Virus genome (UHGV): UHGV-0076293
From: a virus
Direction: 5' to 3' (one strand)
Length of the DNA: 64,000 nucleotides
This document shows, piece after piece, positions 8,011-63,543 of the stretch; within the stretch, counting starts at the first letter, position 1, and every line of letters begins with the position of its first letter. The notes under the pieces are model-generated. The model saw nothing but the letters and a program-made list of their open reading frames with translations. It was not told the origin of the DNA and did no database searches. The position numbers and the translations under genes are program-made.

Positions 8011-8065
8011 TATTTTCAGATATATATTACTTAGGTGAGAGAATTACGTAATACTCATTTATCGA
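8011..8065 (+). promoter_or_regulatory. phage promoter-like element with downstream 5'-UTR hairpin (copy 1)
   Basis: TTTTCAGATATATATTACTTAGGTGAGAG followed by an imperfect palindrome; about 25 nt upstream of an AGGAG RBS; one of five near-identical copies. Confidence 0.6.
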
Positions 8066-14504: not shown

Positions 14505-14568
14505 TTTCTATTATTTTTTGGATAGATATTATCAAAGGGAGACTGTCAGTTGGTTTAAAGGAGACTTT

Positions 14569-22555: not shown

Positions 22556-24739
22556 ATGCAGAGATTTAACATATTTCGTGAACAGAACATCGCGTTGGCG
22601 AAATCACTGATTATTAAATCAGAATCAATCGCACAACAGATGAATCTGGCAATAACCGAGAACGGCGGTTTCGTTTCCGATAACCGAAGTACGTGGCGAT
22701 ACTACCTGCATTTAGCAGGACAACGTCACGAATGGGATAAGCCCATTTACATAACGTCGCTCGACACGCAAGAGCAGATAGAATTAACGACAGCCAACCT
22801 GTCCCGTCATAAAAAGACCTCAAACGTATTTCGTTCGAACGGCGAGTACATTGAGGAGCTGATCAGAACGTATCCTGACTACGCGATTTATATCCGAGGT
22901 GTGTTTAATCCGGTGGATATAAACTACGCCATCCGTGTGGCTGATTGTTCTATTCTCTATTACGACAGTTCATTAGTGGAGTCGCAAGAGACGTCACTGA
23001 TGTCGAGATTGGAAGACAGAATAAGGGCAGCTCACGTTCGCTATATGTCAGAAGGGTGGAAAGTTCACAACGATGCGTTCGTGTTAGCATTCTACTGTAT
23101 TCTGTATCCGCAGCTACCCGGCATTATCGGCTATATCCGTTCTTCTTTACAGCATACCACGGAAACACACTCGTTTTACGTGACAGAGTTCTTAGCATCG
23201 CACCAAGAACTTCACGAGTTTATGCCGTATCTGACCCAGAAACAGAAATTCATTCTTTATCGGAACATTCGTTACTGGGAACGTAACTCAGGGAAAGAGG
23301 AGATTTTCGACTGGCAGATTGATGCTTTGCTGACAGGTTGGGGGATGCCTGCGGTTGGGTATAATGTTGCACAACAGATACACGAACCGAAGGATGATGA
23401 CGACTCCACGTTAACACCGTTACCGATTGGTTATCAGCAATCGCTTAACTATACGGAAAAGGATTCTGGTCGAGACCTTGACATTGTAACGACGACGGAC
23501 ATTATCCAGAAGGAAGTCGCGTTAGCGTACAATAACCCGGCGTACGAACCGGAGTATCAGGAAGACTTAGATACCCGTTTAAGTTTAACGCAATACCCTA
23601 ACCTGAAAACCAAACTCATTGAAGTTACAGCAGTCGACCCAGAAGCGATTGAGCGCTTCGAGTATCTGCATAACCTCTTTAACGAATGGGTACATCTCGT
23701 CGCGAAAGGGAAATACAACATTTACCACGAGATTCTTAACCCAACAAACGGGGATACCCTAAAGCTTAGCTCAAAAGAGTTACTGGCGCTGTTCTTGTAC
23801 GCGGCGTATAAAGGGTATTCTGACGTTGCGTTAGAAGAGATTCCTGTGTTCAACGTGTTCGGGGTGTTAATCAAACGCTGGGTTTCGTTCGATGAAATGG
23901 AACAACATTTAATTCCGAGTTGGGAAAACCGTTTCGATGCGTTGATTAACTATTATACCGATACACACACAGAAGTCGTCGGAACGATTCTTAGTGCTGA
24001 TGAACTTTACGACACGGTTAATGAAATCATTACCCAGAAACGTCGTCGTTGGCGTTATAGTCAAAACCGACGTAAGATTCCTGACCGTGCAGCGGGCTTG
24101 ATGCTGTTTAACTACCATTACCGTGATTATCGTTGCGATTTAAAACTGAACTATCGTAATTACGATGAGTTCTTTAAAACGTTTGGGTTAGATTATACGT
24201 TGGTTTCGGCGGAGACGTGGCAAGATATTGCTATTGACGCATTTAACACCGCAACTAACCTGGAAACCCGCGCAACGATTTCACAGTCTGAGATTCAGCG
24301 TGCGATGGTACGTCTGATGACGAAGTTGTCATCCTACACCGTACATTTTGCTGCACGAATGGGGTCAGATTCTTACGACGTTATGGACCCGCTCTGTCCT
24401 ATCTTAGGGGATATCCCTATGAGTGGGGAGGGGTCGGTTACCATTATTGAACCCCTCTTAGGCGTACAGCAAGTTACGCGTCACCAGTATATATCCACCG
24501 ACACTGTGTTACCGGCAGCGCCTGTTATTAAAGAACTGTCGATGCCGCAGCACATCAAACTCAGGATGAACATTTACATGGGCATCCGAGTGAAAGTAAC
24601 ACAGCAGGTTGTGGTGGATATTAACGAGCCGACTACCGGGGTTGTTAAAGTGAAATCTTCGCTTGACGATTGGACGTTAAACGAACAGGTGAAAATTAAC
24701 GATCTTGACGGCTTCACGCTTGACCAGCTACCTAAGTGA
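22556..24739 (+). CDS. hypothetical protein (about 727 aa)
   Basis: ORF track starts at a TTG at 22544; the first ATG is at 22556; start lies 12 nt from the divergent minus-strand gene start. Confidence 0.7.
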   Translation: MQRFNIFREQNIALAKSLIIKSESIAQQMNLAITENGGFVSDNRSTWRYYLHLAGQRHEWDKPIYITSLDTQEQIELTTANLSRHKKTSNVFRSNGEYIEELIRTYPDYAIYIRGVFNPVDINYAIRVADCSILYYDSSLVESQETSLMSRLEDRIRAAHVRYMSEGWKVHNDAFVLAFYCILYPQLPGIIGYIRSSLQHTTETHSFYVTEFLASHQELHEFMPYLTQKQKFILYRNIRYWERNSGKEEIFDWQIDALLTGWGMPAVGYNVAQQIHEPKDDDDSTLTPLPIGYQQSLNYTEKDSGRDLDIVTTTDIIQKEVALAYNNPAYEPEYQEDLDTRLSLTQYPNLKTKLIEVTAVDPEAIERFEYLHNLFNEWVHLVAKGKYNIYHEILNPTNGDTLKLSSKELLALFLYAAYKGYSDVALEEIPVFNVFGVLIKRWVSFDEMEQHLIPSWENRFDALINYYTDTHTEVVGTILSADELYDTVNEIITQKRRRWRYSQNRRKIPDRAAGLMLFNYHYRDYRCDLKLNYRNYDEFFKTFGLDYTLVSAETWQDIAIDAFNTATNLETRATISQSEIQRAMVRLMTKLSSYTVHFAARMGSDSYDVMDPLCPILGDIPMSGEGSVTIIEPLLGVQQVTRHQYISTDTVLPAAPVIKELSMPQHIKLRMNIYMGIRVKVTQQVVVDINEPTTGVVKVKSSLDDWTLNEQVKINDLDGFTLDQLPK

Positions 24740-24746
24740 GAAAACC

Positions 24747-25274
24747 ATGGCATATCGCGTCGACTTAACGAAAACTCCGAAACAAATTCTGGTAGATCGT
24801 ATTAACTACGTTTTCGGGGTATCCTATACCACTGACAACATCGATTTTAACGATAAAGGTGTGCAACCACTGACAAAAGATGAAGCCCGTCGTTACGGAC
24901 TGGAATCGAAAGTGGCTGCTGACTTTAAAAACGGTGTTGCAGGGAACCAGGAATTTATCTTAACCCGTGTTGACCTGGCAACGTTCTTAGCTGACGAACC
25001 GGTTACGGTACCGAAAGGCGAAGTAACCAGCAGCCAAGAACTGGCAGACTATATCGTTGCTCAGACCGGTATTGATTTGACTGAAGACGACATTATGATC
25101 GAGCCTATCAGTGAGGAACTCGATTCTTATGATGTTCGCTTAGTCCCGAATCACTTATCTTTTAAAGGAACGATTCCGGTCGTATTTACTGACCCCACAC
25201 CACGTACGTTGGCGTCTCTCGTGACGAAACTTGCGCTGGACGGGTTCCGCCCTGGAGAATTAATCAATGTCTAA
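24747..25274 (+). CDS. hypothetical protein (175 aa)
   Basis: first ATG of the ORF, 8 nt after the upstream stop. Confidence 0.65.
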   Translation: MAYRVDLTKTPKQILVDRINYVFGVSYTTDNIDFNDKGVQPLTKDEARRYGLESKVAADFKNGVAGNQEFILTRVDLATFLADEPVTVPKGEVTSSQELADYIVAQTGIDLTEDDIMIEPISEELDSYDVRLVPNHLSFKGTIPVVFTDPTPRTLASLVTKLALDGFRPGELINV

Positions 25275-50862: not shown

Positions 50863-50864
50863 TA

Positions 50865-51368
50865 ATGGCGGTTAACTCGGGTTGGGTCGGTTCTTCGGCT
50901 AAGAGCGAAACGGGCGAACAGTGGATGAGCGCTGCGGGTGCCAAATTGGGATTGGGTAAACCTTTTATGATGAGTCAAATGGTGGGACGATCTATGGGCT
51001 GTAAAATTTCAACTGCTGCATATAGTGATTCTTTAGGTAAGAAATGGGGTGCTGTGGGATCAAGTTGGCCATTAACTCAGAAAAATCAGGGAACCATTCA
51101 AAACGCGGGTAACTGCGGGGTGGGAACTTTAGTAGGTATAGAGTTACAATTAACGACGGTAGTTGCCAACGCAACGCCTACTCTAGCGGTCTATTTACAA
51201 GGCGGCAGGGCCTCTAACATCACTGCAAATCTAGGCGGTAACACTTGTGCGCTGACCTATCAGCAGGTTATTAATGGCCAACATTATTACTGGACCAATA
51301 ACATTAGTGCCGCGTTCCAAAACGTGATGAAATCGACCGGTACACTAAGAGATTTCAAAATTAGTTAA
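50865..51368 (+). CDS. hypothetical protein, paralog X2
   Basis: GSSAKSETGEQWMSAA...MMSQMVGRSMGC; flanked by poly-G tracts. Confidence 0.65.
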   Translation: MAVNSGWVGSSAKSETGEQWMSAAGAKLGLGKPFMMSQMVGRSMGCKISTAAYSDSLGKKWGAVGSSWPLTQKNQGTIQNAGNCGVGTLVGIELQLTTVVANATPTLAVYLQGGRASNITANLGGNTCALTYQQVINGQHYYWTNNISAAFQNVMKSTGTLRDFKIS

Positions 51369-51986: not shown

Positions 51987-54119
51987 ATGAGTCAGCCAAT
52001 TGGAAAGAAGCGTATTCATGAGCTGGAAACATTTGAAGGTGAATTAGCAGGAGTCGTTCTGCTGATGTCCAAAGACGACAAAGAATATAAACTTGACGCA
52101 TCTCGTTTACAAAACGATAAGCTGTATCTAGCTTGCGGTACACCTTTTCCTAAACTAGTATTCCAAAACGATAAAACACATTACAATATTAATCCGTACA
52201 GTGACTACGACACTTATGAAGTTTCTGCAAATAAAGGTCGGGTATCTAAAGTTACTCGTGCCACATTTAGCGTGATGGCTGGGTCTTTATCGGTTGGCGA
52301 GAAAATACAACTTACAGTTACGCGCAATGGCGTACCATTTCAATTTGAAGTTACCGTATCGGGACCGCGTATCACTACTCCCACTTGGACACTTCCAGTT
52401 AATGGCGGTAAATTGAGCGTAACGCCAACCTTTGAAGTAACTGACTATCAAGCCTATCCATATACCAACACCGGTAATCAACAGACCGCTGCCAGTTGGG
52501 AAATTTCCACTAGTGAAGATTTCTCAACTACAGTTTTCCAATCACTGAACGACACCGTCAACAAAACAACCATCAGTATCCCAGAAGGTAAGTTAGAACC
52601 AGGTCAAACTTACTACGCACGTGTTCGCTTCCATAACGCAGTAACCGAAAGTGATTGGTCCGTTGTTCAATTCTCAGTCGGCGAAGCATTTATTCAGCGT
52701 CCTGCACTGATCGAACCCACCGTAGACATGGTGTTAAGCGCATCGAATATTACACTTAAAACTGATGTTTTTAAATGGGTCGGTGACGAACCTGCGGAGA
52801 CCCACGTATCGACTGACTGGCAGGTTACTTACGGTAGCAACGATTTTGACGAAATGAATAATCTCGTTAACCAATTAGAAGATGCGATTAACCTGACGTC
52901 GCTTAAATTACCGTCTGATCGGGTTTACGTTAATAACAGTTATCGTGCACGCGTGCGTTTTCGTGGTGAGAGAAGCGTCAGTGATTGGTCTGAACCTTTA
53001 ACGTTCCGTGTAAGTCGCGGGAACGTACCAACAAGTGAATTCCAGTCAATTTCTGCTTCTGGATTTACAGGTAATTCAATCGGTGCTGAGTTGGCATGTA
53101 CTGACGACGGTTTGCTGTTTGCTGCTACTGGCGTTGCACAGAAAGCGAAATTCTTACATATCTTTAAGAAAGACTTCCCGTCTTACAACAAAGTTGCCTC
53201 TTTAACAGCTGCTACTGAGGTTGACGCAGACAGAGATGGTCGCTGTCCGGTCAGTATGTCAGCCGACGGTAAGATTATTGTTGTCGGTGTTAGCGCATCT
53301 AAAGCTAACGAAGACCACGGCGAAGTTATCGTTTACCGTAACCCAGATAACGCTGAGTGGAGTACAATCAACGGAATAACTTTAGCGGGATTACCCACAG
53401 AAGGGTTCCATGGCCTTGCAGTAAAACTGTCAAAAGACGGCAATCGTTTGATTGTGGGTAACGGTACGAAAGTGCTGTCTATGTATTCCAATACCGATCA
53501 ATTTGCTACACGTACGGCTGTGTCGCCGACACTAAGTGCCGAAGACGCCACTTGTGGTGGTATTGGTAGCATTGCAATGTCTGAAGACGGTAACGGTTTA
53601 GTGCTTGGCGAAACTAACGGAACGAAATTCCACGTACTGGCTTGGGAATCGGATAGTTGGGTGTCTAAGGCATCTATTACACCAAAAGACTTGACTGAGA
53701 AAGCAACGATTAAAGTCGCTGCTTCTTCTGACTTGTCTACGATTCTTGTTTCTGTAGTTGAGACACACAAATACTACGTTTACAAGAAAACCGGTGATAG
53801 TTGGTCTCTGTTCCAAACCTTGGATTATACCGAACTGGATTACTCCATTACTTCTACCCGTTACCCGACGGGAGACATTAATGTTGCGCCTTCCGGAAGC
53901 TGGTTAATTTTCGGTATGGTGGGTTCGTTGGGTTCTATTTTCGAATTTCGTAATAGTACCTACCAACGACAAAATAGCATTTACGGCAGTAGTCTTAGCG
54001 ATCCTGAGAATTACCACTTCTATACGTCACAAGCCATCAGTGCACAAAACGATTTGTTCGTCGGTGCTGATGTTAAAGAAAGTGCTTCGTACTTCCCACA
54101 AATCAAAGTTTACATGTAA
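51987..54119 (+). CDS. second tail fibre / receptor-binding protein (710 aa)
   Basis: N-terminus KKRIHELETFEGELAGVVLLMSKDDKEYKL is homologous to the N-terminus of the 1438-aa fibre; two FN3-like units (YYARVRF...SDWS, YRARVRF...SDWS); C-terminal repeated S-x-DG-x-x-(I/L)-(V/I)-x-G beta-propeller-like blades. Confidence 0.7.
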   Translation: MSQPIGKKRIHELETFEGELAGVVLLMSKDDKEYKLDASRLQNDKLYLACGTPFPKLVFQNDKTHYNINPYSDYDTYEVSANKGRVSKVTRATFSVMAGSLSVGEKIQLTVTRNGVPFQFEVTVSGPRITTPTWTLPVNGGKLSVTPTFEVTDYQAYPYTNTGNQQTAASWEISTSEDFSTTVFQSLNDTVNKTTISIPEGKLEPGQTYYARVRFHNAVTESDWSVVQFSVGEAFIQRPALIEPTVDMVLSASNITLKTDVFKWVGDEPAETHVSTDWQVTYGSNDFDEMNNLVNQLEDAINLTSLKLPSDRVYVNNSYRARVRFRGERSVSDWSEPLTFRVSRGNVPTSEFQSISASGFTGNSIGAELACTDDGLLFAATGVAQKAKFLHIFKKDFPSYNKVASLTAATEVDADRDGRCPVSMSADGKIIVVGVSASKANEDHGEVIVYRNPDNAEWSTINGITLAGLPTEGFHGLAVKLSKDGNRLIVGNGTKVLSMYSNTDQFATRTAVSPTLSAEDATCGGIGSIAMSEDGNGLVLGETNGTKFHVLAWESDSWVSKASITPKDLTEKATIKVAASSDLSTILVSVVETHKYYVYKKTGDSWSLFQTLDYTELDYSITSTRYPTGDINVAPSGSWLIFGMVGSLGSIFEFRNSTYQRQNSIYGSSLSDPENYHFYTSQAISAQNDLFVGADVKESASYFPQIKVYM

Positions 54120-54692: not shown

Positions 54693-54736
54693 GGTAGCAG
54701 GGGCTTAGCCCCTGCTACCTTTTTCTTTATTTTTTC
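54693..54736 (+). terminator. intrinsic terminator
   Basis: GGTAGCAGGGGC-TTA-GCCCCTGCTACC followed by a T-rich stretch. Confidence 0.85.
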
Positions 54737-54782
54737 TCAGATATATATTACCTAGAGGAGAGTGAAATTTACATTCACTCCA
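54731..54782 (+). promoter_or_regulatory. phage promoter-like element with downstream 5'-UTR hairpin (copy 4)
   Basis: TTTTTTCTCAGATATATATTACCTAGAGGAGAGTGAA followed by an inverted repeat ending TTCACTCC. Confidence 0.6.
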
Positions 54783-56112: not shown

Positions 56113-56940
56113 ATGTTACAGTTCGAACTCACCGAAGAAAGAAAAGTCGTTAACGAGTTTAAAATTTCCCCTATCCCTACCGAAAAACAAATTAAAGAAA
56201 TCGCTGAGTTACAAAATAAGTACAGCTTTTACTATAAAGTTAAATCGGAAACATTTAATATTTTCTGGACCGAAGACGAGGTCAATTTCCCTAACAAACT
56301 CATTAATGCGGCTCTAGATATTTTAGTACGGCCTGTTGAGACGTCTAAAGATCCAGAACAAACCACTTGTAGGTTGAAAGTCGAGCGCCCAGCGAAGGAT
56401 GTTGCTTACTTCACAGACGAGATTCTACTTACCTCCAAACAGGCAGGTAAAATTGGATCAATATTATACCTTTTTTACAGCGACAAATTCACTTATCTGG
56501 TTGAAAACAGCGTACTTAAAGTGAACTATGAATATGCTAGTTATCGTGTTCTTTTAAATCAACTATTGGAAGACATAGAGGGAGAAAATGTTCTGGTATT
56601 TACAGTTGAATATATTAGCAAAGCCGATGCTGTCGAGTTTATCCGCCGCGTGAAAGATGAACTCGAAGACCGTGAATTTATGATTTATCAAAGCAAATAT
56701 CTTGAAGGTAACTTGAATCTCTTGATCAGAAACGAATCATGGATTCTTAAAGTTTTGGAATCCCATGCGCAGAAAATTAAGAGAGGCAGTGATTGTTTTA
56801 AACAAATTTTCGAGAAATACGAAACGGAAATTAGACAACGGCTTGCATCCCACTGGGCCGTAGATCAGGATGTGGAATACGCCCAGCTATTTGATAAGTT
56901 TTATAACGAGATGAGGAGGGTTTGGGATCTTAAACAATAG
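56113..56940 (+). CDS. hypothetical protein (275 aa)
   Basis: AGGAG RBS. Confidence 0.7.
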   Translation: MLQFELTEERKVVNEFKISPIPTEKQIKEIAELQNKYSFYYKVKSETFNIFWTEDEVNFPNKLINAALDILVRPVETSKDPEQTTCRLKVERPAKDVAYFTDEILLTSKQAGKIGSILYLFYSDKFTYLVENSVLKVNYEYASYRVLLNQLLEDIEGENVLVFTVEYISKADAVEFIRRVKDELEDREFMIYQSKYLEGNLNLLIRNESWILKVLESHAQKIKRGSDCFKQIFEKYETEIRQRLASHWAVDQDVEYAQLFDKFYNEMRRVWDLKQ

Positions 56941-58841: not shown

Positions 58842-59112
58842 AACAGTTGTATTTCGTAGTAATGGTGATGTGGTTTTGTATCGTGGTAAGAAACGTATTC
58901 GTACGTTAGAATACCGTGAAGCAAAACGTTTTGTTGAAGAGTGTGCATGGTTAATGCATTACGAAGGGAACTATCGTGCTATCTTAGAAGCTCCGCGTTT
59001 AGAACGTGCGGTTGCACAGATGGCAATAGGTAATCCTAAGAACTGTTACCTGGCCCGTAAGCCAAAATACTTACAGCGTCTTTCGTTAGGCAGCTTTATT
59101 GCTGGATTTTAA
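58831..59112 (+). CDS. hypothetical protein (about 93 aa)
   Basis: internal ATG of the track ORF 58810-59112 with GGAG RBS. Confidence 0.5.
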   Translation: MKRETVVFRSNGDVVLYRGKKRIRTLEYREAKRFVEECAWLMHYEGNYRAILEAPRLERAVAQMAIGNPKNCYLARKPKYLQRLSLGSFIAGF

Positions 59113-59118
59113 TAAAAA

Positions 59119-59170
59119 TAATTTCAGATATATATTACCTAGGTGAGAGTTCAGTTACTCTCACTTAACC
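59119..59170 (+). promoter_or_regulatory. phage promoter-like element with downstream 5'-UTR hairpin (copy 5)
   Basis: ATTTCAGATATATATTACCTAGGTGAGAGT-TCAGT-TACTCTCAC; clean 8-bp stem. Confidence 0.65.
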
Positions 59171-59194
59171 AAAACCATTTTAGGAGCATATACC

Positions 59195-59689
59195 ATGAAC
59201 TTCACTAGACTTGACTACACTAACGAATTAGTCGACAAAGAAAAATACAAATTCACCGTTGACTTGGGTTACGGATTACTGGACGTAGAAAAAGACGTCC
59301 TGCACAAAGAATTCCGTGAACAGTTCGGTGCTCTGTTCTGCGCAGGTTTCCGCAGAAACACTATCGATATCGGTTATAGCGCAACAGCGTATACCGACGA
59401 AGAAATGTTTAAGCTGGTAACACAGATTATCGGTACGCGTGGAGCCAAACGACTCAACTATTCCAACGAACTTGTTTCGAAAGAACATTACAAGTTCACC
59501 GTTAGACTACCTGTTCCCCTCACAGAAGAGGATAAGAACATCCTCTATAAAGCCCTTCAAACCGAATTCGGTAAAACGCTCAAAGTAGGGTTCCGTAATC
59601 GTAGTATCGATATCGGAATTAGTGTGGACGTGTGTAGTGACGACGACCTTTACGAATTAGTTTCGGAAGTTATCGAAAAACATCTCTAA
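59195..59689 (+). CDS. hypothetical protein with internal tandem duplication
   Basis: two ~80-aa halves: RLDYTNELVDKEKYKFTVDL...GFRRNTIDIGYS versus RLNYSNELVSKEHYKFTVRL...GFRNRSIDIGIS. Confidence 0.7.
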   Translation: MNFTRLDYTNELVDKEKYKFTVDLGYGLLDVEKDVLHKEFREQFGALFCAGFRRNTIDIGYSATAYTDEEMFKLVTQIIGTRGAKRLNYSNELVSKEHYKFTVRLPVPLTEEDKNILYKALQTEFGKTLKVGFRNRSIDIGISVDVCSDDDLYELVSEVIEKHL

Positions 59690-59735
59690 ACCTAAATTAA
59701 CACTTCGACTTGTAAATCTAAAAGGAAAAATAAAA

Positions 59736-60500
59736 ATGAAAACTATCGAATTCAAAAACAGCAACGTACGCGAGCAAGGACACATTATCACGAGCTTCCT
59801 GAAAAATTCTACACCGCATTTAGCTTATCAATTCTACGGGAACGAACTTAAGATTGCCGGTTTTGATGAAGTTGAATTAAATAAGGCAAACGAATTCATT
59901 ACCGACGTTATTGCCGACGAAGCTACCTGTTTAGTTCTGAACTTCGTTAAACCTGGAGAAGACATAAAGTCTGCCGAGAAGTTATTTATGGCAGTTTCTG
60001 AGAAACTATACGGTATCGTTGAGGTTGATAGCAATAACTATATTGTTTATTTTAAGCATTCTCCAAAGAAAAACCTCGCTAAAATCAGAGAGTTTTTTGA
60101 ACACAACCCTTCATACTGCGTAGATCTTTACACCCTCGCCTACGACGGAAAAGCACATCCTAACAACCTTATTCGTTATGACCATATTCCGCATGTACCG
60201 GGAAGATTCGAGGCTACGGAATGGTTCTTATTACACAAAGATCGGATTGCTTATTACAATTACGAAGAGATCAAAGGGATTGTAGACAAAATCAATGATG
60301 ACTACTTACAAACTCGTGAAATGTTTTGCGTGACTGTAAGAGCTAATGGTTTAACTTCATTCACTTGTGACAACCGCGTCGGTCGTCGGGTCTACGATCT
60401 GTTAATAAAGGAACTTGACAAACTTACTCCGGTAAAAGTTGGTGTTAACTATTTAAATTGGATAAAGGCGGGTTTAATTGATGAAAACTCTAAATTCTGA
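59736..60500 (+). CDS. hypothetical protein (254 aa)
   Basis: AAGGAAAA RBS. Confidence 0.7.
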   Translation: MKTIEFKNSNVREQGHIITSFLKNSTPHLAYQFYGNELKIAGFDEVELNKANEFITDVIADEATCLVLNFVKPGEDIKSAEKLFMAVSEKLYGIVEVDSNNYIVYFKHSPKKNLAKIREFFEHNPSYCVDLYTLAYDGKAHPNNLIRYDHIPHVPGRFEATEWFLLHKDRIAYYNYEEIKGIVDKINDDYLQTREMFCVTVRANGLTSFTCDNRVGRRVYDLLIKELDKLTPVKVGVNYLNWIKAGLIDENSKF

Positions 60501-60909
60501 TTTGCGTGATTACATTCGTAAATACCCAGCCAGTATTCCGGTACTGGCTTCACTCTCTTTATCGGGTATGGACCTTAATACCTTAACGGTAGAAAAATTC
60601 CACGAAGTAGTAAAATCGTCGTATCAAATTGTTACCGATATGTCAGTGCGGAAACGTGCTGACTACCCAGACGGTGATTTCGGTACAGAGATGTTCACAG
60701 ACTACGCAGTTGCGTATCTGATGGGACGTCACTTTATCGATAAACTCAATACGGCTGTAGAAGGAGAAACAGTCACGGAAATTGTCAATGCTTGGCAGCA
60801 ACGTATTGTGAGTGACGCTTACTGTCGTCAAGCCTTAAAGAAAATGTCGGCGGTAGCATTAACCAATGACCAACGTGCTTTAGAGTTCCTTAAGCACAAT
60901 TACGAATAA
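60481..60909 (+). CDS. hypothetical protein, paralog of the gene at 62097
   Basis: ATG 3 nt after a TTG used by the track; shares DLRDYIRKYP...EYPxGDFG...VxEWxxRIxSD with the gene at 62097. Confidence 0.65.
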   Translation: MKTLNSDLRDYIRKYPASIPVLASLSLSGMDLNTLTVEKFHEVVKSSYQIVTDMSVRKRADYPDGDFGTEMFTDYAVAYLMGRHFIDKLNTAVEGETVTEIVNAWQQRIVSDAYCRQALKKMSAVALTNDQRALEFLKHNYE

Positions 60910-60930
60910 TTTACCAAAAGGAAAAGTACC

Positions 60931-62034
60931 ATGTTTAATATCGAGATTACACCGCTCGTTAAAACTGAAATCCGTCCGGTTCCTGAAGCACAGTTACTCG
61001 ATCAACTTTATCGTATATTCCTGGATAAAGGTGTACATTTCCGTGCAGAACAGGTCAACGATGAAAGCATCGTGTTCTACTGGACTCACTGCAACGATTA
61101 TCTTTGCGACACTATTGCGGTGGAAATCGGTGAGTTACTCAACCCGGTAGAAACGGCCGAGACTGAACAACCGAAAGTCGATGAACAGCAGAAAGACGAA
61201 CCGCTCGTCCTCTGGTACGAAGGCGAAAAGATTAAGGATATTAAAGAGGCGTTAGAGACCTTCTATCCCGGTGATTTAGGCATTTACTGGGATAACAGCA
61301 AGCTCGTCGTTCGATTGAAGAAAGACGATCGTAACCTCATGGAAGAAGTACGTTCTATCGCCGAACTGTTCGATAACGACGCAGTTCGTCTTATTTCGTT
61401 TCATGATATCGGAAAAGAAGACGCAGATGATATCATGCGTGGTGCTGTACACGAACACAAGGGGAAAATTCGCCAGTCTAATTATGTTGACAGCACTCTA
61501 ACTGTGCTTGTTGATAATGATCCTGACGTTATTAAATGGTTCGAAGAACCGTATTCCTTTACTTACACTGGCCCAGAGGCCGAAGCGATTAATGATACCT
61601 TGACAGCTTTCTATCCTACCAAAGTAGAGACTAAACTCGAAGGTGAAAAACTCACCATTAAATGGAAATGGTGGGACGCTGCTCTCGACGAAGAAATTCA
61701 TAGTCTCATTAAAGAGATTGTTGGCAATCGTCTACGTCTTCTAACAATCACTACTATTGGGAAAGAAGATGCCGACACGCTTATGCGTGGTATCACTCGT
61801 TGGTTTCCTGAGAAAGTCCGTCAGTGGACTTACACAAACGATACACTTACCATTCTACTCAACTATGAACCCGGTATTATTGGAAAGTTAAAAACTCATC
61901 TGCGTGACTTGTGGTCAGTTCGTTTTCTTAATAATAACGAGCACTTACTCGACACGTACTTTAGAGAAATATCTTCTGGCGTAGGTTGCAACTGCCCTAA
62001 CTGTCAAAAACGTCGTCAATTAACGACTTTCTAA
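60931..62034 (+). CDS. hypothetical protein with internal tandem duplication (367 aa)
   Basis: two ~115-aa repeats, each containing IGKEDAD(D/T)(I/L)MRG. Confidence 0.7.
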   Translation: MFNIEITPLVKTEIRPVPEAQLLDQLYRIFLDKGVHFRAEQVNDESIVFYWTHCNDYLCDTIAVEIGELLNPVETAETEQPKVDEQQKDEPLVLWYEGEKIKDIKEALETFYPGDLGIYWDNSKLVVRLKKDDRNLMEEVRSIAELFDNDAVRLISFHDIGKEDADDIMRGAVHEHKGKIRQSNYVDSTLTVLVDNDPDVIKWFEEPYSFTYTGPEAEAINDTLTAFYPTKVETKLEGEKLTIKWKWWDAALDEEIHSLIKEIVGNRLRLLTITTIGKEDADTLMRGITRWFPEKVRQWTYTNDTLTILLNYEPGIIGKLKTHLRDLWSVRFLNNNEHLLDTYFREISSGVGCNCPNCQKRRQLTTF

Positions 62035-62042
62035 ATTCATCT

Positions 62043-62078
62043 AGAGGGGTGGTAAACCACCCCTCTATTATTGTATTT
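62043..62078 (+). terminator. intrinsic terminator
   Basis: AGAGGGGTGG-TAAA-CCACCCCTCT followed by a T-rich stretch. Confidence 0.75.
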
Positions 62079-62096
62079 ACCTAAAGGAGTATTAAA

Positions 62097-62528
62097 ATGT
62101 TTTTCGTATTAAAAGATGATATCCGTAACTACATTCGTAACAACCCGATTGCTCTGACTGTTTTAATAGGTTTCTGCCGCCCGAATACTGGCTTCGATTT
62201 ACTTAAGTTAGAGGAATACCAAGAGATTGTAAACACTGCCTATATGGAGATTTGCAGCTGCGGTAAACGTCCTCGTGAAGAGTATCCCGCAGGTGAATTA
62301 GGCGACTCTATGCATCGTGACCAGAATCTGATGCAGGAATTCGTTGAATACACACTGGAAAATCTTAACTATCCACTCCTGGTCGACACTGTACCAGAAA
62401 TGGTTGACGAATGGTTAAAACGTATTTATAGCGATCCTACTGCCAACAAGTTACTGAGCCAGATGTCGCAAACTTCTCGTGACATCGACACTCGTAGCCT
62501 GATGTACTTAGCACACAACGTTCGCTAA
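62097..62528 (+). CDS. hypothetical protein, paralog of the gene at 60481
   Basis: AAGGAG RBS; DIRNYIRNNP...EYPAGELG...VDEWLKRIYSD. Confidence 0.65.
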   Translation: MFFVLKDDIRNYIRNNPIALTVLIGFCRPNTGFDLLKLEEYQEIVNTAYMEICSCGKRPREEYPAGELGDSMHRDQNLMQEFVEYTLENLNYPLLVDTVPEMVDEWLKRIYSDPTANKLLSQMSQTSRDIDTRSLMYLAHNVR

Positions 62529-62535
62529 CCACTCT

Positions 62536-62580
62536 CCGCTATAGGCTTCGGTCTATAGCGGAATTAATTTTCTTTCCCTT
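62536..62580 (+). terminator. intrinsic terminator
   Basis: CCGCTATAGGC-TTCG-GTCTATAGCGG followed by a long T-rich stretch. Confidence 0.8.
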
Positions 62581-62694
62581 TTCTTTTTTGTTATTTTGAC
62601 ACCACCTTACTTACACCCTACCCGACTATTCCTATGCTGGCTGAGGGATGTAAAACGACCTCTTAAACCTTTTTACTTACTGTGAGTTAACGCG

Positions 62695-63543
62695 ATGTCT
62701 CTTACGTCAAAACAGAAACTGCTAAAACTCATCAACACTGAAAACAATATTAGTCCGCCGTTGACCTTCAGTGATGTTGATATCGGAGAGCCTACTGGTA
62801 CTGGGGTTGATACCCAGGTGGTTCTGACCTCTAAACTCAAAGGCGATGAGTCTACTACTTTAACAGTGACTTACCACCGTCGTAACTTACCTGACTACCT
62901 AACCGGTGAGTTGGTATTCGGTAACGACAGTGTGGTAACCGCATCAGATTTGCTTAATGCGATTAACGCAAAATACAACCTAAATATTTTACCCTCGGAT
63001 ATCGTTGACGCAAAAGTTGAAGGCGAAACCCATCAGCTTACCGCTAACGAGAAATCTTACGAGTGGTGCGGTGTAGTAACACTTACGCTGCGTGATCCTA
63101 TTGACCTGACTGAACTGTTACCAGTTACTCAATTAGAGAATCTGGTAGAGTATCCGTCCACTAAGAAAGGTAACGCTGCGGTTTATTCTCACCCGATCGA
63201 TTTCACCGCAGAAAAAGATTACCTTGACCCGATTACTATCAACGACACCGTAGACTTGGTCGAGTTAGCCGCTAAACTGGATGGCGTCGTTGACGAGAAA
63301 TGGGTAAGTGTGCCTAAGAACGCGACTAACAACCTGTACGGTGCGAAGGTTATTTACGATGGCCCAACCGCAGGTTACGAAGGCGCAAATACGAAGTTCA
63401 CTCGTGTGTTGGTGCTGACGCTCAGCCCGCTGTGTTCTAACCTGACAGGTAATCTGTTAATCCACTTTAACGGTACCGATCGTCCGAAGTCGAAGATTGA
63501 ATTAGCACAGACTAATCCGGTCTTACCGGGATTCTTAGATTAA
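62695..63543 (+). CDS. hypothetical protein, paralog B1 of the fibre-associated family
   Basis: N-terminal MSLTSKQKLLKLIN...TVTYHRRNL...SDLLNAINAKYNLNI aligns with the genes at 45172 and 51471. Confidence 0.65.
   Translation: MSLTSKQKLLKLINTENNISPPLTFSDVDIGEPTGTGVDTQVVLTSKLKGDESTTLTVTYHRRNLPDYLTGELVFGNDSVVTASDLLNAINAKYNLNILPSDIVDAKVEGETHQLTANEKSYEWCGVVTLTLRDPIDLTELLPVTQLENLVEYPSTKKGNAAVYSHPIDFTAEKDYLDPITINDTVDLVELAAKLDGVVDEKWVSVPKNATNNLYGAKVIYDGPTAGYEGANTKFTRVLVLTLSPLCSNLTGNLLIHFNGTDRPKSKIELAQTNPVLPGFLD

Follow-up and report, generated by a model that had tools for sequence, protein, structure and literature searches.

Ancient gene and module duplications in a putative early unit of an SPN3US-like jumbo phage

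Five adjacent phage genes (gA to gE) contain internal repeats and a paralogous gene pair that, on sequence comparison, are real but ancient duplications. They lie in the window, i.e. the 64,000-nucleotide stretch of the virus genome UHGV-0076293 analysed here, and would constitute an early unit of a Chimalliviridae-type jumbo phage that grew by duplication and encodes host-directed products. We put the chances that this explanation is right at about even.

The phage and the genomic setting of the block

The source is a ~225-kb SPN3US-like jumbo phage (scaffold 225,279 bp), whose relatives, found in assemblies of Salmonella, E. coli, Shigella and Enterobacter, measure 222-226 kb. The window carries genes for the major head protein, the split polymerase and SPN3US-type families, and is syntenic with SPN3US and phiEaH2 at 46-57% amino acid identity. 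DNA matches to deposited phages were absent, the promoter region described below being the only DNA-level match within 59000-63000. The proposed genus 'Bapsvirus' comprises jumbo phages with genomes of ~220-226 kb, known from assemblies of Salmonella, E. coli and Shigella, that share synteny with Seoulvirus but are only distantly similar to it (PMC12768965). Set against this published genus description, the lineage fits as 'Bapsvirus'-like, in Chimalliviridae, and is related to SPN3US and Erskinevirus. The genus was described only in late 2025 and is common in clinical Salmonella and E. coli assemblies; the phage group persists in Salmonella and E. coli cultures, where carrier-like persistence has been reported.

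A sequence-only reading had flagged the block as an accessory module of duplicated genes starting at a promoter motif. Its coordinates and calls were correct for all five genes, and so was the promoter motif copy (59122-59149) at which it had the block begin. The features are:

59122-59164, + strand: early promoter motif TTTCAGATATATATTACCTAGGTGAGAG of the phiKZ-group type (virion RNA polymerase), from the sequence and the published consensus
59131-59138, + strand: promoter core TATATTAC, within the motif at 59122-59149
59143-59149 and 59158-59164, + strand: perfect 7-bp hairpin (GTGAGAG / CTCTCAC), 3' of the promoter core
59195-59689, + strand: gA, 164 aa, two tandem ~81-aa halves (59195-59440 and 59441-59686)
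59736-60500, + strand: gB, 254 aa, 3' end overlapping the gC start by 20 nt
60481-60909, + strand: gC, 142 aa (143 aa from the TTG at 60478), all-alpha, first copy of its family (phrog_8484, E 1.5e-16)
60931-62034, + strand: gD, 367 aa, acidic (pI 4.8, net charge -22)
62042-62067, + strand: strong 11-bp hairpin between gD and gE, inside the unit (terminator-like scan)
62097-62528, + strand: gE, 143 aa, all-alpha with seven helices, second copy of the gC family (phrog_8484, E 7.4e-19)
62535-62562, + strand: terminator-like hairpin, 12-bp stem with UUCG loop, followed by a T-rich stretch
62695-63543: DUF7941 head-paralog gene (PF25613, E 1.4e-51; phrog_1037, E 1.2e-62)

Upstream of gA-gE lie tail-fibre, Gp38-type adhesin and DUF4376 genes, and downstream a virion paralog array. 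Because the gene at 62695-63543 matches DUF7941, it marks the 3' boundary of the block; the SPN3US head paralog family B genes (DUF7941) at 62695 and 63557 directly adjoin it, and none of the five proteins matches that family (PF25613 / phrog_1037). The SPN3US virion paralog families A, B and C (PMC5694885) are likewise a product of extensive old gene duplication in a jumbo genome. Unlike them, gA-gE belong to none of these families, were duplicated partly within genes and probably encode non-virion proteins.

A putative early transcription unit

As in phiKZ-group early promoters, an AT-rich TATATTAC motif recurs in the window upstream of same-strand operons. There are four strong and two weaker intergenic copies, all on the + strand and ahead of gene clusters; besides the copy at gA, the strong ones lie at 8014, 34847 and 54735 and the weaker ones at 14516 and 39882. 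The early promoter consensus of phiKZ, 201phi2-1 and OBP has the same order of AT-rich block, TTTCAGATA, TATATTAC and CTAGGTG (PMC7058600, Table 2). In the phiKZ group, such motifs mark the early operons of the virion RNA polymerase and head, as here, same-strand clusters of small uncharacterised proteins (PMC7598289); in related phages, early-type motifs precede some structural genes too (PMC7058600). Each copy in the window immediately precedes a stem-loop, whereas the consensus descriptions (PMC7058600, PMC7598289) do not mention one.

The promoter of the block is identical in the relatives L006, L008, L009, L011 and L014 and occurs at the orthologous site in phiEaH2, SPN3US, Asesino and SPAsTU, lying in the last three directly 5' of a single gene of the gC/gE family. 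Literature searches for an SPN3US transcript map returned nothing relevant. The hairpin at 62535-62562, separated from the DUF7941 gene at 62695 by a 130-nt gap, is the probable 3' end of the unit. gA-gE would form one five-gene operon between the promoter at 59131 and this hairpin, and the homology of the promoter suggests that it is expressed early.

The preceding unit (g54810 to g58810), itself preceded by a terminator-like hairpin at 54693-54719, includes the following features:

54735-54780, + strand: second early promoter (same motif) with its own 5' hairpin, which starts the unit
56113-56940, + strand: g56113, 275 aa, a paralog of gD

Repeats in gA and gD

gA had been described as two ~80-aa repeats, and the comparison of its halves bears this out. 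Residues 1-82 and 83-164 gave a Smith-Waterman score of 176 against 25+/-4.8 for shuffled sequences (z=31) and matched in hhalign at 99.2% (E 9e-20), with 41% amino acid identity; at the DNA level, a 53-nt island of 74% identity recurs at 243-nt spacing. The protein is mildly acidic (pI 5.3). Its orthologs are 93-99% identical, with a dN/dS of 0.10, and its 23 clusters all come from this clade; no match was found in Pfam, PHROG, NCBIfam or the deposited phages.

gD is divided as follows:

60931-61146, + strand: module M1 (N-domain), aa 1-72
aa 73-88, + strand: disordered linker
61195-61539, + strand: repeat unit R1 (M2+M3), aa 89-203
61540-61890, + strand: repeat unit R2 (M4+M5), aa 204-320
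61987-62004, + strand: invariant CxCPxC motif (aa 353-358) of the helical tail

The two ~115-aa repeats previously seen in gD, each with IGKEDAD (aa 160-166 and 276-282), were recovered as R1 and R2, with 35% amino acid identity and z=31-34. In the AlphaFold model, each repeat is predicted to be a pair of smaller modules and gD to comprise five beta-alpha-beta-beta-alpha (ACT/ferredoxin-like) modules; the AF2 models of gD and gE are confident. The sub-modules matched in profile comparison at 97.4% (E 1e-11) and 98.8% (E 5e-17). gA and gB appear, from their sequence pattern, to share this module architecture. When the gA halves and M1-M5 were compared by hhalign, only M2 with M4, M3 with M5 and the two gA halves matched, all other pairs staying below 3%, and a single origin of all modules therefore found no sequence-level support.

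Structural matches to the gD modules were ACT/ferredoxin-like only. Since designed proteins, S6 and Pcc1 matched equally well, the resemblance to ACT is at the superfold level only. Searches of gD, gA, gB and g56113 for ACT-type Pfam families gave none at E<=1, and the gD family profile matched no PDB sequence at E<=10. Weak matches of gD to HHH_5 (E 0.013), vATP-synt_E and REase_III (E 0.021) fell below the cut-offs and were disregarded; the DUF4376 matches fall in neighbouring genes, outside gA-gE.

The sequence-only reading missed both the pairing of sub-modules and a member of the gD repeat family outside the flagged region (56113-56940). This paralog, g56113, consists of an N-domain, a linker, one repeat unit (aa 103-215) and a helical tail; it has ISKADA in place of IGKEDAD and lacks the Cys motif. 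Its Smith-Waterman z was 12.8 against R2 and 6.8 against R1, a profile made from the two gD units alone scored it at E 3.2e-7, and its orthologs in L008 and L011 also match the gD unit profile. Among 1.84 billion representative proteins, the gD family was represented by only six clusters, all of them gD/g56113 variants from relatives of the phage; the exhaustive search returned g56113 as cluster P0158. gD numbers 252 clusters as against 23 for gA. Its alleles are mosaic, with a dN ~7-fold that of the neighbours and a dN/dS of 0.38-0.55, and variants with one unit and with two units occur.

The gC/gE family and gB

The small genes gC and gE had been called paralogs, rightly so: they share 30% identity over 141 aa (blastp E 1.5e-24, z=39). 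Both belong to PHROG 8484, with gC covering profile positions 3-126 of 140. Orthologs of gC are 96-100% identical, with a dN/dS of 0.16. gE is separated from gD by 62 nt, the hairpin included. The family profile matches members in phiEaH2, SPAsTU, SPN3US and Asesino (E 4e-24 to 3e-15). SPN3US_0135 (RefSeq ACQ60_gp131) and Asesino gp152 align with gC/gE over the full length (hhalign 98.7% and 97.7%, respectively), the Stratton homolog has a predicted fold in common with them (TM 0.84), and phiEaH2 gp056 is a PHROG 8484 member that is uncharacterised, like SPN3US_0135 and Asesino gp152.

In the SPN3US-like sister phages, the family gene occupies the same genomic slot behind the same upstream early promoter, so that the family has been kept across three genera behind a conserved promoter. 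Seoulvirus and Erskinevirus carry one such gene and this lineage two; here, gA, gB and gD part the family members from the promoter. Since the sister genera have a single family gene behind the same promoter, this lineage has itself added gA, gB, gD and its second small gene.

In SPN3US, the homolog bears the annotation 'hypothetical', whereas the neighbours detected by mass spectrometry are labelled 'virion structural protein'; SPN3US head paralog family B begins at gp138. Literature searches on SPN3US gp135 gave nothing relevant, the predicted fold of gE matched no solved structure, and PDB sequence searches with the family profiles gave no match. Two genes in the vicinity, phiEaH2 gp055 and SPN3US_0137 (143 aa), are not family members, and gp053 and gp054, two large genes that precede the homolog in phiEaH2, were rejected as diverged versions of gD or gB (hhalign 0.1-0.2%). 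In an alignment of the family (A3), the last helix carries an invariant R133 and an invariant H140 with six intervening residues; the motif is short and could be due to chance. Because of the conserved C-terminal D-x-R-x6-H-N, a HEPN domain was considered for gC/gE, and was rejected when fold and profile searches gave no support.

gB can be replaced by other alleles. L006, L011 and L014 have it at 99% identity; its slot is occupied in L009 by a 263-aa allele with 24% identity, and in L008 by a 157-aa gene of undetectable similarity. gB matched no family in Pfam, PHROG or NCBIfam, and no similarity between gB and gD was detected.

Age and conservation of the duplications

Profile comparison had been set beforehand as the test that could overturn the repeats, and in it their similarity was significant. 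It is also true, as claimed, that gC and gE each follow a larger gene (gB and gD), and no homolog gave gA-gE a functional assignment, in keeping with that reading. The duplication of a large and small gene together, as the sequence-only reading had suggested, finds no support, because gB and gD show no detectable similarity and only the small gene was therefore duplicated. Nor can the duplications be called recent: the copies retain only 30-41% amino acid identity and 30-40% identity at third codon positions (near saturation), the DNA remnants are islands of 37-53 nt with 73-76% identity, and the copies are kept in diverged relatives.

All five genes were found in the same order in the six diverged genomes sampled, with gB present as unrelated alleles. 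The gA halves and both small genes occur in every one of them, and both gD units in five, the sixth, E. coli 98232, having a one-unit gD. gA, gB, gC and gE are under strong purifying selection (dN/dS ~0.1; range 0.09-0.16, as against 0.05-0.06 for neighbouring conserved genes). The term 'accessory' thus has to be qualified: the block is specific to the lineage when set against the sister genera, with their one gC/gE-type gene behind the same promoter, but in the genomes sampled all five genes are kept and four are under purifying selection. Turnover continues, as seen in the one-unit gD variants and the replacement of gB by unrelated alleles.

A tblastn search of gA, gB and gD against 50,697 phage records gave no match; Pfam, NCBIfam and PADLOC scans of the five proteins and their neighbours revealed nothing significant, and the family scans gave no enzymatic or defence family for gA-gE.

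Proposed origin and function

The ancestral unit may have consisted of the promoter and one small all-alpha gene of the SPN3US_0135 / PHROG 8484 family, a state that would persist in the sister genera. In old growth steps, the small gene would have been duplicated to give gC and gE, while gA, gB and gD, for which no relatives were detected beyond the lineage, would have been added. gA, with its two halves, and gD probably arose by tandem duplication of small alpha/beta modules, gD as an N-module plus two copies of a module pair; its paralog with a single unit, g56113, belongs to the early unit upstream. Transcription of gA-gE by the injected virion RNA polymerase would run from the phiKZ-type early promoter to the hairpin past gE.

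The products are soluble, mostly acidic and devoid of a recognisable catalytic domain, and we infer that they are non-virion proteins. They may bind host factors in the first minutes of infection, for takeover or counter-defence, in which case contact with the targets would fall to g56113, to the exchangeable gB and to gD, which evolves fast and varies in unit number, while the conserved gA, gC and gE would be invariant partners. Timing, composition and evolutionary pattern are the whole basis of this early host-interaction or counter-defence role, which is our best guess. Some observations run contrary to it: dN/dS never exceeds 1, the diversity of gD resembles allele shuffling and could reflect relaxed constraint, and the block sits in a neighbourhood of tail-fibre and head-protein genes.

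This neighbourhood suggests that gA-gE could instead be accessories of tail-fibre or virion assembly (adaptors or chaperones), with gB, gD and g56113 tracking host range and the small helical proteins acting as chaperones. The block lies between the tail-fibre, Gp38-type adhesin and DUF4376 genes and the virion paralog array, an EPS depolymerase comes after the same slot in Erskinevirus, a variable large gene is followed by a conserved small one in both gB-gC and gD-gE, and gD has a very weak match to phrog_136 (tail-fibre assembly; E 0.075). However, this match is not significant, no stretch of it passing alone; the unit is set apart from its neighbours by its own early-type promoter and terminator-like hairpins; and the modules resemble ACT/ferredoxin domains and show nothing fibre-like, no beta-helix and no trimeric coiled coil. 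Moreover, no virion annotation is attached to the SPN3US homolog, although the virion proteome of that phage is well mapped, and gB and gD are unrelated, so that there is no duplicated fibre-chaperone pair. We therefore consider a role in assembly unlikely. A similarly low probability is given to the idea that gD, g56113 and possibly gA are small-molecule-sensing regulators. A metabolite or nucleotide signal would then be sensed where the modules of the tandem ACT-like pairs meet, and early infection or persistence would be adjusted by it. An ACT-like fold would suit such sensing equally well. Among ACT/ferredoxin-like (split beta-alpha-beta) regulatory domains, the tandem ACT domains of SerB (3p96) and the ACT domains of SpoT (7qpr) and aspartokinase (3tvi) are the comparison: the gD modules are predicted to have three strands and not four, sequence similarity is absent, and gD has no enzymatic or DNA-binding partner domain.

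It appears very improbable that the duplicated genes are dispensable filler, i.e. neutral paralog drift in a large genome, or that the ORFs are not real genes. Functional annotation is indeed absent throughout, gD has almost no relatives beyond the lineage, its unit number and the gB allele vary, and jumbo phages are known for paralog families (PMC5694885). Nevertheless, gA, gB, gC and gE are constrained by purifying selection to the same degree as conserved genes nearby, the gene order is constant in the genomes sampled, the AF2 models are confident, and the gC/gE family is found in three genera behind its promoter; dN/dS and cross-genus conservation have already largely refuted this view.

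The host-directed early unit would in itself be a fairly ordinary case of phage accessory genes enlarged by duplication, and the result is descriptive; paralogs and internal repeats among orphan early genes are a common kind of finding in large phages. Still, the block illustrates how a jumbo-phage early operon may grow round one conserved gene, through old duplications of genes and of modules within genes and through the swapping of alleles. Five hypothetical proteins of 'Bapsvirus' are here given a first description of their structure and evolution, and gC/gE are linked to gp135 of SPN3US, a model phage with a genetic system, in which this early gene is uncharacterised. If gD and gB are host-interaction factors, they are candidates to explain host specificity or persistence.

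A bolder version, which we hold to be improbable though slightly less so than assembly or sensing roles, is that gD, g56113 and the swappable gB represent a novel class of modular proteins that act early in counter-defence or host takeover. Copy-number-variable ACT-like module pairs would serve in them as exchangeable target-binding cassettes, deployed before the phage nucleus forms, and the SPN3US_0135 family would be the ancestral effector or partner common to Seoulvirus, Erskinevirus and 'Bapsvirus'. Such proteins might also be connected with the carrier-like way in which the phage group persists in isolates of Salmonella and E. coli.

Organization of the gA-gE unit

Five consecutive genes, here called gA to gE, occupy positions 59195-62528 according to the ORF listing:

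59195-59689, + strand, gA, 164 aa
59736-60500, + strand, gB, 254 aa
60481-60909, + strand, gC, 142 aa
60931-62034, + strand, gD, 367 aa
62097-62528, + strand, gE, 143 aa

A sequence-only reading had described repeats within gA and gD and a paralogy of gC and gE, and all three are borne out. In Smith-Waterman alignments, the halves of gA scored 176 against each other (shuffled sequence, 25 ± 4.8; z = 31), R1 and R2, the ~115-aa repeats of gD, gave z = 31-34, and gC against gE gave z = 39 (blastp E 1.5e-24). The motif IGKEDAD occurs at aa 160-166 and aa 276-282 of gD. Profile-profile comparison on family alignments, named in that reading as the decisive test, also showed significant similarity: the gA halves reached 99.2% (E 9e-20), and the gD repeat, compared as two sub-modules, 97.4% and 98.8%.

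The block had been said to start at a promoter motif copy, and the motif AAAAATAATTTCAGATATATATTACCTAGGTGAGAG, followed by a perfect hairpin, is indeed present in the intergenic region directly ahead of gA. It agrees with the early-promoter consensus published for the phiKZ group, i.e. TATATTAC for phiKZ and TTTRARR_BTATATTACDWHDGTG for 201phi2-1, and also with that of OBP (PMC7058600, Table 2). Such motifs mark the operons transcribed by the virion RNA polymerase (PMC7598289). The relevant elements in the window are as follows:

8014-8060, strong early promoter motif, then stem-loop
34847-34890, strong early promoter motif, then stem-loop
54735-54780, strong early promoter motif, then stem-loop
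59122-59164, strong early promoter motif ahead of gA, then stem-loop
14516, weaker early promoter motif
39882, weaker early promoter motif
54693-54719, terminator-like hairpin preceding the previous promoter copy
62042-62067, terminator-like hairpin inside the unit, in the gD/gE gap (strong, 11 bp, 7 GC pairs)
62535-62562, terminator-like hairpin directly 3' of gE (12-bp stem, UUCG loop, T-rich tail)

Because of the motif upstream of gA and the hairpin after gE, gA-gE is a bounded unit; the gene that follows (62695) belongs to DUF7941, the head paralog family B of SPN3US. The hairpin in the gD/gE gap might attenuate read-through into gE, or might stabilize the upstream mRNA.

A stem-loop directly follows every strong promoter copy, including those of relatives (L006 4872, L008 4883, L011 2502, L014 2554). 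The stems vary in sequence among copies and relatives while their pairing is kept; at the 54744 copy, for instance, relatives have GAGAGCGAA..TTCGCTC where the window has GAGAGTGAA..TTCACTC, a compensatory change. The stem-loop could represent a structure conserved at the 5' ends of early transcripts.

Architecture of gD and its family

The AlphaFold model of gD, built on a 30-sequence alignment, has a mean pLDDT of 76 (80-90 within domains) and a pTM of 0.45, so that the relative placement of its modules is uncertain. It predicts five successive beta-alpha-beta-beta-alpha modules (M1, aa 9-70; M2, aa 93-148; M3, aa 152-205; M4, aa 209-264; M5, aa 268-331), a common alpha/beta superfold, with a disordered acidic linker (aa 74-90) and a helical, low-confidence C-terminal tail. 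In the model the ~115-aa repeat is a pair of modules, M2M3 being equivalent to M4M5. The pattern of their sequences suggests that gA and gB, too, may be built from modules of the gD type. With a pI of 4.8 and a net charge of -22, the gD protein is strongly acidic.

In the gD tail (nt 61987-62004, aa 353-358) the motif C-x-C-P-x-C-(Q/R)-K is invariant in all family members, while the rest of the tail is variable; the one-unit variants have it as well, with a proline that may be replaced (CDCSNC in E. coli 98232). With only three cysteines, the motif may form a metal site on oligomerization.

The preceding early unit contains a gene (56113-56940, + strand, 275 aa) with the architecture of gD and a single repeat unit, consisting of an N-domain, the unit and a helical tail without the Cys motif. 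It gave z = 12.8 against R2 and 6.8 against R1, and matched a profile made from the two gD units only (E 3e-7). Since R1 and R2 resemble one another more than they do the unit of this gene, the gene duplication preceded the internal duplication. A ~30-aa helix (INQLNIRMRKLTKKIFL) comes after R1 in most relatives and is the counterpart of the helix that follows R2 (IGKLKTHLRDLWSVRFL); the original duplicated unit was thus probably longer, this segment having been lost from the allele in the window.

The number of units is polymorphic, as in the E. coli 98232 element, whose gD has 253 aa and one R1-type unit. When 1.84 billion representative proteins were searched exhaustively with HMMER, using a profile that combined the gD family and the 56113-56940 gene, six clusters were retrieved in all. 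Two of them are two-unit forms (393 and 382 aa), P0155 (247 aa) is a clean deletion of R1, P0157 (253 aa) has R1 only, one (280 aa) is of the 56113-56940 type, and one is a fragment. As all are recognizable variants of these two genes, the family looks like an orphan of this phage lineage.

Age and origin of the duplications

The duplications had been considered recent. They are old: at the amino-acid level the gA halves are 41% identical, the gD units 35% and gC/gE 30%, third codon positions are near saturation (40%, 39% and 30% identity, respectively), and DNA-level similarity survives only as islands of 37-53 nt with 73-76% identity. Moreover, every relative examined has the two gA halves and the two small genes, and five of six have both gD units.

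Four sister phages, phiEaH2, SPN3US, Asesino and SPAsTU, carry the early promoter motif and its downstream hairpin at the orthologous position. In SPN3US, Asesino and SPAsTU the first gene behind the motif is a gC/gE-family member, and a profile search found exactly one member per sister locus, whereas the window has two. The family corresponds to PHROG 8484 by profile match, and aligned over its full length with SPN3US_0135 (gp135; hhalign 98.7%, E 1.7e-16) and with Asesino gp152 (97.7%). The ancestral unit was thus a promoter with one small all-alpha gene, to which this lineage has added gA, gB, gD and a second small gene. The helical fold of gC/gE had no match; lineage restriction holds for the unit except for this family, which spans three genera.

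The large neighbours of the phiEaH2 homolog, considered as candidate gD relatives, proved unrelated to gD. Likewise, gB and gD have no detectable similarity to each other, so that no large gene was duplicated together with its small neighbour. What stands of the sequence-only reading, which was partly right, is a set of duplications without assigned function behind a promoter, in a block present in all six genomes sampled.

Selection and variability

Pairwise Nei-Gojobori dN/dS over six genomes was 0.10 for gA, 0.09 for gB (within its allele class), 0.16 for gC and 0.10 for gE, compared with 0.05-0.06 for flanking conserved genes. For gD it was 0.38 overall (M1 0.13, M2 0.55, M3 0.36, M4 0.33, M5 0.34, tail 0.38), and its dN was roughly sevenfold that of the neighbouring genes. 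At 90% identity, gD formed 252 clusters and gA 23. In the gD family alignment, M2 occurs as three or four widely divergent alleles, an insert is present or absent, and the tail has two alleles; their various combinations amount to mosaicism by recombination. Some genomes have a 99% conserved gB, and others a 24%-identical or unrelated gene in its place; the 56113-56940 gene is 99% or 65% conserved in relatives, or gives no hit. Four genes are strongly constrained, gD is diversified, and gB is allelically replaced.

Possible role

By promoter homology, gA-gE would be expressed early by the virion RNA polymerase. The SPN3US homolog is annotated as 'hypothetical' among the MS-defined virion proteins, for which reason we presume a non-virion location. 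The timing, the acidity, the absence of catalytic signatures and the way in which variable components contrast with conserved ones suggest that the unit may act at the phage-host interface, in takeover or counter-defence prior to assembly of the phage nucleus. Accessories of fibre or virion assembly and ACT-like small-molecule sensors are less likely alternatives, and neutral filler is the least likely. We regard the structural part of this interpretation as nearly certain and the functional part as tentative; for structure and early host-interface role together, the chances appear even.

Paralogs and internal repeats are usual among early orphan genes of jumbo phages (PMC5694885). The most useful outcomes here are the division of gD into five modules together with its polymorphism in unit number, the pattern of hypervariable and conserved genes, from which candidates for host-interaction studies emerge, and the link to the genetically tractable SPN3US gp135.

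Phage lineage and neighbouring genes

The window is an identical part of a 225,279-bp metagenome scaffold. At the DNA level it matched deposited phages only in the ~40-nt promoter motif and a 150-nt adhesin segment (Stx phages). By protein-level synteny its nearest neighbours are Erskinevirus (phiEaH2, Stratton, Asesino) and Seoulvirus (SPN3US), with aa identities of 55-57% and 46%, respectively, on one conserved gene nearby, and major head protein, polymerase and helicase families of the SPN3US type are present. Relatives of 222-226 kb are frequent in isolate assemblies of Salmonella, E. coli and Shigella, and two are circular 'plasmid' records (~222 kb) in complete assemblies, from E. coli 98232 (L011, NZ_CP173450.1) and Enterobacter ludwigii (L014, NZ_CP134650.1, classified in PLSDB as a non-mobilizable plasmid).

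These phages fit, by description, the proposed genus 'Bapsvirus' (Chimalliviridae; 247 genomes, ~220-226 kb), to which Seoulvirus is syntenic and only distantly similar, reported among 'bacterial assembly-associated phage sequences' (PMC12768965; see also bioRxiv 10.1101/2024.12.31.630880). The plasmid records and the frequency in Salmonella and Shigella fit the reports of persistent jumbo phages in the same two sources. The lineage was described in December 2025; one protein family of the two already exists as a PHROG without assigned function, and the others are orphans with a common fold.

Within the Gp38-type adhesin gene at 50865-51368, ~150 nt (50864-51017) are 85-89% identical to tail-fibre adhesin genes of E. 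coli/Shigella Stx phages, which suggests exchange of a receptor-binding segment with unrelated phages. Further paralog pairs lie in the tail-fibre/adhesin and head-paralog regions (45172-45735/51471-51983, 50261-50803/50865-51368 and 62695-63543/63557-63997; phmmer E 2e-28, 5e-12 and 4e-4), and ORF 24705-25274 weakly matched two DUF7941-type genes. In the interval from the adhesin genes to the early units, 51987-54119 (+ strand) encodes a 710-aa protein with no PHROG match at E <= 1e-5 and a sole faint match to Ig_Rha78A_N; other genes replace it in L006 and L008, and it is probably another variable, host-range-related gene. Downstream of the window, the source scaffold (L003, 18144-20373) carries, on the opposite strand, a pair of adjacent radical-SAM genes of 440 and 307 aa, which are conserved in all relatives sampled.
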